DNA of 4,425 bases from a virus (lineage: Duplodnaviria; Heunggongvirae; Uroviricota; Caudoviricetes): IMG/VR virus record IMGVR_UViG_2667527959_000007; one strand, 5' to 3'. The position numbers were made by a program, and so were the translations under genes. Positions 3,283-3,942 of the stretch are shown here, in pieces. Each line of letters starts with the position of its first letter. The first letter of the stretch is position 1. Below the pieces are notes generated by a model, which made no database searches, was not told where the DNA came from, and saw nothing but the letters and a program-made list of their open reading frames with translations.

Positions 3283-3942
3283 ATGAAAATGAAATGGTAT
3301 GAACTGGCTAGATCCAGAATGAAAGAGCTCGGCATAACTCAAGAGAAGTTAGCTGAAGAGCTTGGTATGACGCAGGGTGGAATTGGTCACTGGTTGCGCG
3401 GATCTCGTCATCCATCTCTTGACGAGATTGGTGTGGTGTTTAAATACCTTGGTATTGATAACGTCTCATTCAACCACGACGGTACATTTTCACCTGTTGG
3501 CGAATACTCATCTGCCCCCGTTAAAAAACAATATGAGTACCCTGTTTTTTCTCATGTTCAGGCCGGGATGTTCTCGCCTGAGCTTAGAACCTTTACCAAA
3601 GGTGATGCGGAGAGATGGGTCAGCACAACCAAAAAAGCCAGTGATTGTGCGTTCTGGCTTGAAGTTGAAGGTAATTCCATGACCGCGCCAACAGGATCCA
3701 AGCCAAGCTTTCCTGACGGGATGTTAATTCTCGTTGACCCTGAGCAGGCTGTTGAGCCAGGTGATTTCTGCATAGCCAGACTTGGTGGTGACGAGTTTAC
3801 CTTCAAGAAACTGATCAGGGATAGCGGTCAGGTGTTCCTACAGCCACTAAACCCGCAATATCCAATGATTCCATGCAATGATAGCTGTTCCGTAGTAGGG
3901 AAAGTTATCGCCAGCCAGTGGCCTGAAGAGACATTTAGTTAA
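3283..3942 (+). CDS. cI: cI-type repressor with a C-terminal LexA-like self-cleaving (S24) domain
   Basis: C-terminal about 140 aa ([38 protein letters not shown]...GNSMTAP...FTFKKL...WPEETFS) contains the Ala-Gly cleavage site and the Ser and Lys catalytic dyad, and is nearly identical to lambda cI by recall. The N-terminal about 80 aa is a different helix-turn-helix domain. Start ATG at 3283 or 3289 (AAGGG at 3277-3281 favours 3289); the TTG at 3241 is rejected. Stop TAA at 3940-3942. Confidence 0.9.

Follow-up and report, generated by a model that had tools for sequence, protein, structure and literature searches.

How does a phage repressor come to carry the self-cleavage module of bacteriophage lambda behind a DNA-binding head that lambda does not have, and which of the two phages, if either, holds the original arrangement? 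These questions are raised by the cI gene at 3283-3942 (plus strand) of the 4425-base stretch of DNA analyzed here, which will be referred to as the window. The initial annotation of this stretch had proposed that the gene is a chimera, in which a lambda-like cleavage domain was joined to a different DNA-binding domain by recombination in or near the interdomain linker. Domain-level mosaicism of this kind is a standard observation among lambdoid repressors.

The reading that we favor, with a probability of about 0.9 on the strength of the sequence comparisons described below, is that this is the gene for cI, the maintenance repressor of a lambdoid phage or prophage of E. coli with immunity of the VT2-Sakai/Stx2-II/Nil2 type, and that the protein is composed of two modules that meet at an old mosaic joint. 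GenBank and the literature on Stx phages already contain the gene, the architecture, and the immunity type, and the chimera, real but common, carries little weight as a discovery. Its value lies elsewhere, first as a worked example of how tightly mosaic boundaries can bracket the determinants of specificity (cro, OR, and the cI head on one side, OL/PL on the other), and second in the shared C-terminal DNA, which appears still to be exchanged between prophages of lambda immunity and VT2 immunity.

Organization of the window

The window comprises the part of a lambdoid phage genome that serves early control and replication, in the orientation opposite to that of the lambda map. The minus strand carries, from left to right, a DnaB-like helicase gene (59-1510), an O-like initiator gene (1485-2384), a small DUF2740 ORF (about 2377-2526), cII (about 2558-2839), and cro (2956-3174), the last coding for 71 amino acids plus the stop codon and matching Pfam HTH_3 at 1.5e-12. 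Between cro and cI lies OR, where a motif search places three operators (3200-3273). On the plus strand, cI is followed by the intrinsic terminator of its operon (3973-3994, from a terminator scan), by OL/PL (4022-4096, from the motif search and a promoter scan), and by a PL leader that blastn identifies as lambda-like (4102-4425). This leader contains the nutL boxB (4152-4166), a variable N-leader stretch (about 4195-4302), and the first 29 codons of N (from 4340), which are identical to lambda up to the end of the window. An Rfam scan of the window gave no match.

When the whole window was compared by blastn with lambda 34800-41000, a fine mosaic of homologous blocks emerged. The first block (2834-2949, 97.4% identity) runs from just past the cro stop codon through nutR and tR1 to the start of cII; the second (3532-3936, 93.8%) is the C-terminal part of cI; the third (3965-4000, 89%) corresponds to lambda 35799-35834, the terminator downstream of rexB; and the fourth (4102-4425) begins at the transcription start of PL and continues past nutL into N, interrupted internally by the variable N-leader stretch. 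The operon terminator, PL leader, nutL, and N thus all have homologues in lambda, and the stem of the terminator differs from that of lambda by a compensatory change of G:C to A:T. The rexA and rexB genes are absent between cI and OL, and the terminator comes directly after cI.

The DNA that does not match lambda falls into two blocks: 2950-3531, coinciding exactly with the cro ORF, OR, and cI codons 1-83, and 4001-4101, which is OL with the PL promoter up to +1. Their edges are sharp, with lambda homology restarting at 2949, 7 nt past the cro stop codon, and at 4102, the transcription start of PL. What sets this region apart from lambda is thus confined to the determinants of immunity specificity.

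Neither the phage records nor the complete E. coli genomes that were searched contain the whole window in one piece; the best phage matches cover 80% of it, and the best complete E. coli genome covers 97% in three pieces.

The two parts of the repressor

Translated from the ATG at 3283, the gene codes for 219 amino acids beginning MKMKWYEL. Other starts have been chosen for the same frame, namely the ATG at 3289 (217 amino acids, VT2-Sakai record) and the ATG at 3247 (231 amino acids, PGAP and the Dewey record). The reading frame given in the initial annotation, 3283-3942, is the one in our ORF list, but the peptide quoted there (MKWYEL...) begins at the second ATG, 3289, rather than at 3283. 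Two Pfam domains lie well above their cut-offs: HTH_3 (PF01381) at residues 11-58, with 42.2 bits against 23 and an E value of 8e-11, and Peptidase_S24 (PF00717) at residues 87-209, with 100 bits against 23.3 and an E value of 9e-29. Two other ORFs, at 3377-3682 on the plus strand and 3558-3806 on the minus strand, overlap cI and lie mostly in DNA shared with lambda, in which no such genes are annotated.

The scissile site Ala94-Gly95 (nt 3562-3567), Ser132 (nt 3676), and Lys175 (nt 3805) are present and align with Ala111-Gly112, Ser149, and Lys192 of lambda cI (P03034; structures 3BDN, 1F39, 2HO0, and 8GMU). Judged by its domain, its Ser-Lys dyad, and its Ala-Gly bond, the protein is a self-cleaving repressor of the LexA/lambda cI type (Peptidase S24). 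Among known structures, phmmer ranks the complete lambda repressor first (3BDN, E 2e-96) and gives 8GMU an E value of 2e-89, and the alignment to the lambda C-terminal constructs 8GMU, 2HO0, and 1F39 is gapless from Tyr84 on. The head also draws weak sequence matches in the PDB to lambda repressor-like domains.

Divided at codon 83/84, the protein shows two quite different relations to lambda. The self-cleavage and oligomerization module, residues 84-219 (3532-3942), has 133 of its 136 residues in common with lambda cI 101-236 in mature numbering, so that the near-identity noted in the initial annotation is confirmed, at a level well outside what chance would give; the three differences are S139C, E217D, and G236S, and the lambda module begins correspondingly at mature Tyr101. 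The claim that the lambda-type cleavage module was kept likewise agrees with the sequence, which has the scissile bond, the two dyad residues, and all of the lambda-like C-terminal part. From the 133/136 identity to a module whose cleavage has been characterized, we infer that this cI would also undergo RecA-stimulated self-cleavage.

The other part, residues 1-83 (3283-3531), comprises the HTH_3 domain and the upstream linker, is of the VT2-Sakai/Nil2 immunity type, and shares only 17-19 of 83 residues (about 23%) with the N-terminal part of lambda cI in a global alignment. It is 18 residues shorter than the lambda head and has no N-terminal arm. BLASTP of the head against lambda finds only a 26-residue helix-turn-helix match (12/26, or 46% over helices 2-3; E 1e-7). 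The statement that the head does not resemble the lambda N-terminal domain therefore holds for its overall identity and for its DNA, which has no homology to lambda, and fails at the level of the family, because both heads are HTH_3 domains and are 46% identical over helices 2-3.

The joint within cI

In a global alignment of the gene with lambda cI there is no usable similarity up to nt 3520, a transitional stretch at 3521-3531 with 6 of 11 bases matching, and, from 3532 on, near-identity as far as the stop codon. The joint is thus at about 3521-3532, at codon 83/84 (nt 3531/3532), in the interdomain linker. The interval of 3500-3530 that had been anticipated for a recombination joint was accurate to within a few bases, the observed position being at its upper edge. 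As the joint precedes the Ala-Gly site by 10 residues, the whole self-cleavage module lies on the lambda-like side.

This abrupt start of DNA homology at 3532 supports a mosaic joint inside cI. From codon 84 to the stop codon the DNA is about 93% identical to lambda, with 28 differences in 411 nt, 24 of them at third codon positions. That the joint could have been created by a chimeric assembly, or by contamination with lambda vector DNA, is practically inconceivable: laboratory samples are often contaminated with lambda DNA, and no single record matches the window contiguously, but the C-terminal DNA differs from lambda at those 28 of 411 positions, independent phage isolates and a complete genome carry the same 660 nt without a difference, and the same joint recurs in 776 complete E. 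coli genomes.

Another very improbable alternative is vertical descent without any recombination, in which the head evolved fast and the C-terminal domain was frozen by selection. Both heads do belong to HTH_3 and retain a weak residual match, and C-terminal domains are in general the more conserved. Selection on the protein, however, would not preserve synonymous sites, yet the C-terminal DNA keeps about 93% identity, with 24 of its 28 changes at third codon positions, and the similarity disappears within about 10 nt upstream of 3532; moreover, the trees of the heads and of the C-terminal parts, described below, are incongruent. Synonymous sites that are about 93% identical stand directly beside a head that has diverged beyond recognition at the DNA level, and this step from about 93% to nothing at nt 3532 contradicts vertical descent and marks a recombination boundary rather than a difference in rate.

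Operators, promoters, and Cro

The head is accompanied by operators of its own kind. A search for the motif ANTAC-N5-GTANT with at most one mismatch returned five matches in the window, all in OR or OL, compared with an average of 1.04 in shuffled sequence. They are OR1 (3200-3214), OR3 (3259-3273), and the three OL sites (4022-4036, 4055-4069, and 4080-4094). The sixth predicted operator, OR2 (3233-3247), fits the motif only with two mismatches. The general layout, with three operators in OR and three in OL, is that of lambda, but the motif differs from the lambda consensus, and the lambda operator half-site TATCACCGC has no match in OR or OL. The centers of neighboring operators are 33 and 26 bp apart in OR and 25 and 33 bp apart in OL, compared with 24 and 23 bp in lambda, and for this reason the cooperative pairing of repressor dimers may not copy that of lambda.

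The promoter scan places PL at 4068-4096 (TTGACT-17-TACTAT). Read by eye, a probable PR directed leftward toward cro has the form TTGCAT-17-TATTAT, with its -10 element at 3197-3202, and a weak candidate PRM has its -10 element at about 3270-3275, which would put +1 at about A3283. The PRM transcript would then be leaderless from 3283; lambda is similar in this respect, with a weak PRM whose +1 is at the cI start codon and a leaderless transcript.

The Cro protein of the window is an HTH_3 protein, unlike the Cro of lambda, and is 35% identical to the cI head of the same phage, with which it shares the recognition helix TQGxIGHW, as would be expected if both proteins recognize one set of operators. 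With neither a lambda-type head, nor lambda operators, nor a lambda-type Cro, the locus falls outside imm lambda. The presence of non-lambda operators and of a non-lambda Cro next to the head indicates that the immunity specificity differs from that of lambda, and the proposal that specificity has been swapped relative to lambda thus appears sound.

Known relatives and immunity type

The initial annotation had set a chimera against uniform identity to one known repressor, and such identity is essentially what the databases hold. All 660 nt of cI are identical to the annotated cI or repressor genes of the Escherichia phages Dewey (PQ850600) and vB_EcoP-720R6 (ON470605), and Louie and vB_EcoP-683R2 have repressor genes with 99.4-99.8% identity to it, phi458 one with 98.8%. 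The resemblance to Dewey continues on both sides, with 98.8% identity over 2640-4189, including OR, the terminator, OL/PL, and nutL; Dewey departs from the window in its replication genes, to the left of about 2640, and in the N-leader stretch at 4190-4312.

At 92.9% nucleotide identity over its full length, the gene is also found in VT2-Sakai, Stx2-II, the Stx1-converting phage, Nil2, 1717, YYZ-2008, 2851, and the PA phages, and the architecture is shared at this level by VT2-Sakai and about 60 Stx-phage records. Among these, the cI of VT2-Sakai (Sp5 of E. coli O157:H7 Sakai; BAA94122), has the same length, architecture, and joint, and its record annotates the gene as "similar to bacteriophage lambda CI". 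Its protein is identical to that of the window at 80 of 83 residues in the N-terminal part and at 131 of 136 in the C-terminal part; in the DNA the head part is 95.2% identical and the C-terminal part only 91.2%. The Cro proteins agree at 70 of 71 residues (99%). The question of whether the head belongs to a named immunity type is in this way answered, the type being that of VT2-Sakai, Stx2-II, and Nil2.

The operators lead to the same assignment. The three OR sites of the window coincide with three 17-bp operators annotated in VT2-Sakai, and the half-sites are identical; the central bases of OR1 and OR2, along with some flanking bases, differ. This comparison applies to OR, the OL of VT2-Sakai being only partly within the locus compared. 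Outside the specificity determinants the two phages diverge, in that VT2-Sakai has two extra ORFs (H0093 and H0092) between cI and OL, where the window has the terminator straight after cI, and its cII and nutR region differ from those of the window.

Could the allele in the window nevertheless have a new immunity specificity, distinct from that of VT2-Sakai? The three substitutions in the head (S46D, D47E, and I60V, of 83 positions) and the altered central and flanking bases of OR1 and OR2 allow the thought, but it is improbable: helices 2 and 3 are identical to those of VT2-Sakai, the half-sites are unchanged and it is the central bases alone that vary within the operators, Cro has a single difference, and the head identity of 96% exceeds the 92% used as a rule of thumb for predicting the same specificity (PMC2629481). 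With substitutions that spare helices 2-3 and with unchanged half-sites, the immunity type is most likely that of VT2-Sakai.

These assignments are in line with published statements. In the genome paper on epsilon34, the repressors of L, VT2-Sa, and Nil2 are treated as one N-terminal family, and the repressor of epsilon34 itself is described as combining a protease domain like that of lambda at its C terminus with another specificity at its N terminus (PMC2629481). In a survey of Stx phages, the CI proteins of VT2-Sakai and lambda fall in one clade, with 61% overall identity (PMC8951638). The repressor of the Salmonella phage epsilon34, gp46, is a homologue collinear with the cI of the window over its whole length, linker included, with about 50-55% identity in the head and 79% in the C-terminal part. 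It is much more diverged, comes from a phage of a different host, and has another predicted operator, WTACRAWWTGTAT (PMC2629481). A literature search, with the 1999 genome papers on VT2-Sa and VT2-Sakai outside its coverage, returned indirect statements and no explicit description of the VT2-Sakai cI as a domain chimera.

Direction of the original exchange

The mosaic is real, but it is not an event of this genome; the joint is old and common to hundreds of prophages. The more difficult question is which partner received the C-terminal module. The initial annotation took lambda as the original and the gene of the window as the chimera, yet either may be the recombinant, and the label of "chimera" or "original" reflects only which phage was studied first.

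To place the two parts, six repressors were aligned, split at the joint, and compared separately. The heads form one group with the window, VT2-Sakai, epsilon34, and L, and another with lambda and TL-2011c, which are 56% identical; TL-2011c is the closest relative of the lambda head found outside the lambda-immunity phages. The C-terminal parts group otherwise, with lambda, VT2-Sakai, and the window together at 96-99%, then epsilon34 at 79-81%, TL-2011c at 62-65%, and L at 44%. The two trees are incongruent, and in the C-terminal one lambda stands with the VT2/epsilon34 lineage, not with TL-2011c.

Such a pattern is what would be seen if the exchange had gone in the reverse direction, with the VT2-Sakai/epsilon34 lineage as the original owner of the C-terminal module and lambda cI as a recombinant built on a head of the lambda/TL-2011c type. 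Two other observations fit this account: the similarity between the window and epsilon34 is unbroken across the linker and the joint (DGTFS.VGE...PVK.Q/.EYP, with the slash at the joint), and the tblastn match of lambda to TL-2011c stops at residue 92. Parsimony thus leans toward lambda as the recipient of the module. Against this, the comparison is limited to six repressors; C-terminal domains evolve more slowly than heads, such that 79% versus 50% also fits other histories; and the lambda and TL-2011c repressors, of 237 amino acids each, are collinear. In addition, phage L, with a head of the same family, has a P22-like C-terminal domain (44%), which points to repeated shuffling and weakens the argument from parsimony. 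We regard the reverse direction as a serious candidate, but, as the head family of phage L has itself switched C-terminal partners, its chances fall somewhat short of even.

Distribution and probable continuing exchange among E. coli prophages

Whatever its origin, the two-module gene is widespread, with full-length cI present in 776 of 5426 complete E. coli genomes. Other genomes match the C-terminal part alone, and all but one of the matches of this kind that were listed start at query nt 250, that is, at window position 3532; the exception, H220, starts at query nt 333. Those that were inspected (L004-L007 and Sakai Sp1) are all lambda-immunity alleles, coding for 237-residue repressors that adjoin a lambda-type cro of 66 amino acids. 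Among the matches inspected, only two types of head occur on a C-terminal module that is at least 90% identical.

The relation between these two populations was examined in the 411 nt of C-terminal DNA from ten alleles, five of VT2 type and five of lambda type, a sample that makes the following figures indicative rather than quantitative. No site is fixed between the two types among the ten alleles, and all four gametes occur at 158 of the 351 pairs of informative sites, which thus fail the four-gamete test. The C-terminal DNA of the window is 93.2-94.6% identical to the lambda-immunity alleles and 90.3-92.2% identical to those of VT2 type, unlike its head part, which is 95% identical to VT2-type heads. 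The C-terminal alleles are thus not sorted by immunity type, which argues for continuing homologous exchange between heteroimmune prophages and indicates that both types draw their C-terminal module from one pool, which homologous recombination keeps reshuffling.

Proposed mode of action and implications

Taking the preferred reading of an old two-module repressor with VT2-Sakai immunity, we propose the following scheme. The HTH_3 head (residues 1 to about 65, with the linker extending to residue 83) would bind as dimers to the six ANTAC-N5-GTANT operators, three in OR and three in OL. By analogy with lambda, the C-terminal module, 98% identical to its lambda counterpart, would provide dimerization, pairwise cooperativity through contacts between dimers, and looping between OL and OR, and upon stimulation by RecA the protein would cleave itself at Ala94-Gly95 by means of the Ser132/Lys175 dyad. 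Relative to lambda, what is replaced is only the specificity cassette, composed of cro, OR, and cI codons 1-83, together with the OL/PL block; their surroundings (nutR/tR1, the C-terminal part of cI, the terminator of the operon, and the leader of PL with nutL and N) are homologous to lambda. The old joint at the domain border may have persisted because each module can work without the other. The shared C-terminal DNA, finally, could be the homology arm for recombination in which alleles of one immunity type trade patches with those of the other.

Two more far-reaching readings go beyond this scheme, and both are less likely than not. According to the first, lambda cI is itself the chimera, with a borrowed module for cleavage and cooperativity. 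The second concerns strains in which repressors of the two types live together and share nearly identical oligomerization domains, so that mixed dimers or tetramers could form; in E. coli O157:H7 Sakai such mixed oligomers of the Sp1 and Sp5 repressors might make the stability of the Stx2 prophage depend on a cryptic one. A literature search for repressor heterodimers in polylysogens, or for mixed Sp1-Sp5 oligomers, gave indirect statements and no paper on the subject. If this speculation were true, hetero-oligomerization in Stx-producing strains could affect the induction of the Stx2 prophage, and this is the only practical angle of the present analysis. The Sakai strain does hold both partners, a lambda-type cI in the defective prophage Sp1 (ECs_0274) and a VT2-type cI in the Stx2 phage Sp5, and the C-terminal parts of the two proteins are identical at 132 of 136 positions.

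Mosaic Composition of the Region

Taken as a whole, the window (1-4425) is a new combination. The part at 56-2548, which carries the helicase gene, the O gene and a DUF2740 ORF, is 98.8% identical to VT2-Sakai, and 2640-4189 is 98.8% identical to Dewey, an Escherichia phage with the same cI; no contiguous copy of 1-4425 was found among the phage records or the complete E. coli genomes searched. Within the O gene, two 30-bp repeats (1897-1926 and 1963-1992) match the features annotated as "ori iteron" in VT2-Sakai, and the repeated peptide that they encode is [10 protein letters not shown].

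In the N leader, the stretch from nutL to the N ribosome-binding site (4195-4302) occurs in three different versions in the window, lambda and Dewey, and its flanks (4102-4194 and 4303-4425) are nearly identical across all three; 4195-4302 is a small mosaic patch within the transcribed leader.

Operators and Their Recognition

Measured from centre to centre, the operators at OR (3200-3273) are 33 bp (OR1-OR2) and 26 bp (OR2-OR3) apart, unlike those of lambda OR (24 and 23 bp), and the operators at OL (4022-4094) are 25 bp (OL1-OL2) and 33 bp (OL2-OL3) apart, so that the closely spaced pair is the one farther from the promoter at OR and the one nearer to it at OL. Lambda CI is reported to bind the VT2-Sakai operators with an apparent Kd of 3.7-6.4 uM, and lambda's own sites at 0.2-3 uM, the former being interpreted as shared recognition (PMC10742460). 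Because the VT2-Sakai-type repressor head is only ~23% identical to that of lambda, and the operator consensus is also different, this weak binding may instead be largely non-specific.

Start Codon of the Repressor Gene

Annotations differ in where cI begins (region 3247-3289): PGAP and the Dewey record choose the ATG at 3247, which gives a protein of 231 aa, and the VT2-Sakai annotation uses the ATG at 3289. If the start were at 3247, OR3 (3259-3273) and the -10 element of PRM would fall within the coding sequence. The window and VT2-Sakai differ by two codon changes within 3247-3282, and the fact that both are non-synonymous argues against this stretch being coding.

The Slot Downstream of cI

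Neither rexA nor rexB is present in the window after cI (3943-4000). This interval contains a terminator that begins 30 nt past the cI stop and is homologous to the terminator located 3' of rexB in the lambda locus (L001 1000-1035), the stems of the two differing by a compensatory G:C to A:T change. The cargo of this slot varies among relatives: VT2-Sakai carries H0093/H0092, strain MEI005 a DUF1902 protein and a HicA toxin, TL-2011c, a phage with a lambda-like repressor head, a BsuBI-type methylase, and Nissle, M16807 and FDAARGOS_401 a hypothetical protein and, after it, one with a DUF1828 domain.

Related Repressors in E. coli Genomes

In the Nissle 1917 assembly (NZ_CP007799.1; L009 565-1266), the same cI is annotated in two pieces, with the frame disrupted in the head and restored upstream of the C-terminal part, so that this copy either is a pseudogene or contains assembly errors. 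E. coli O157:H7 Sakai carries both a lambda-immunity cI, together with cro, in the defective prophage Sp1 (L013 6941-7654), and a VT2-type cI in the Stx2 phage Sp5 (L002 5087-5746). Their C-terminal parts are identical at 132 of 136 positions, and their heads at 19 of 83.
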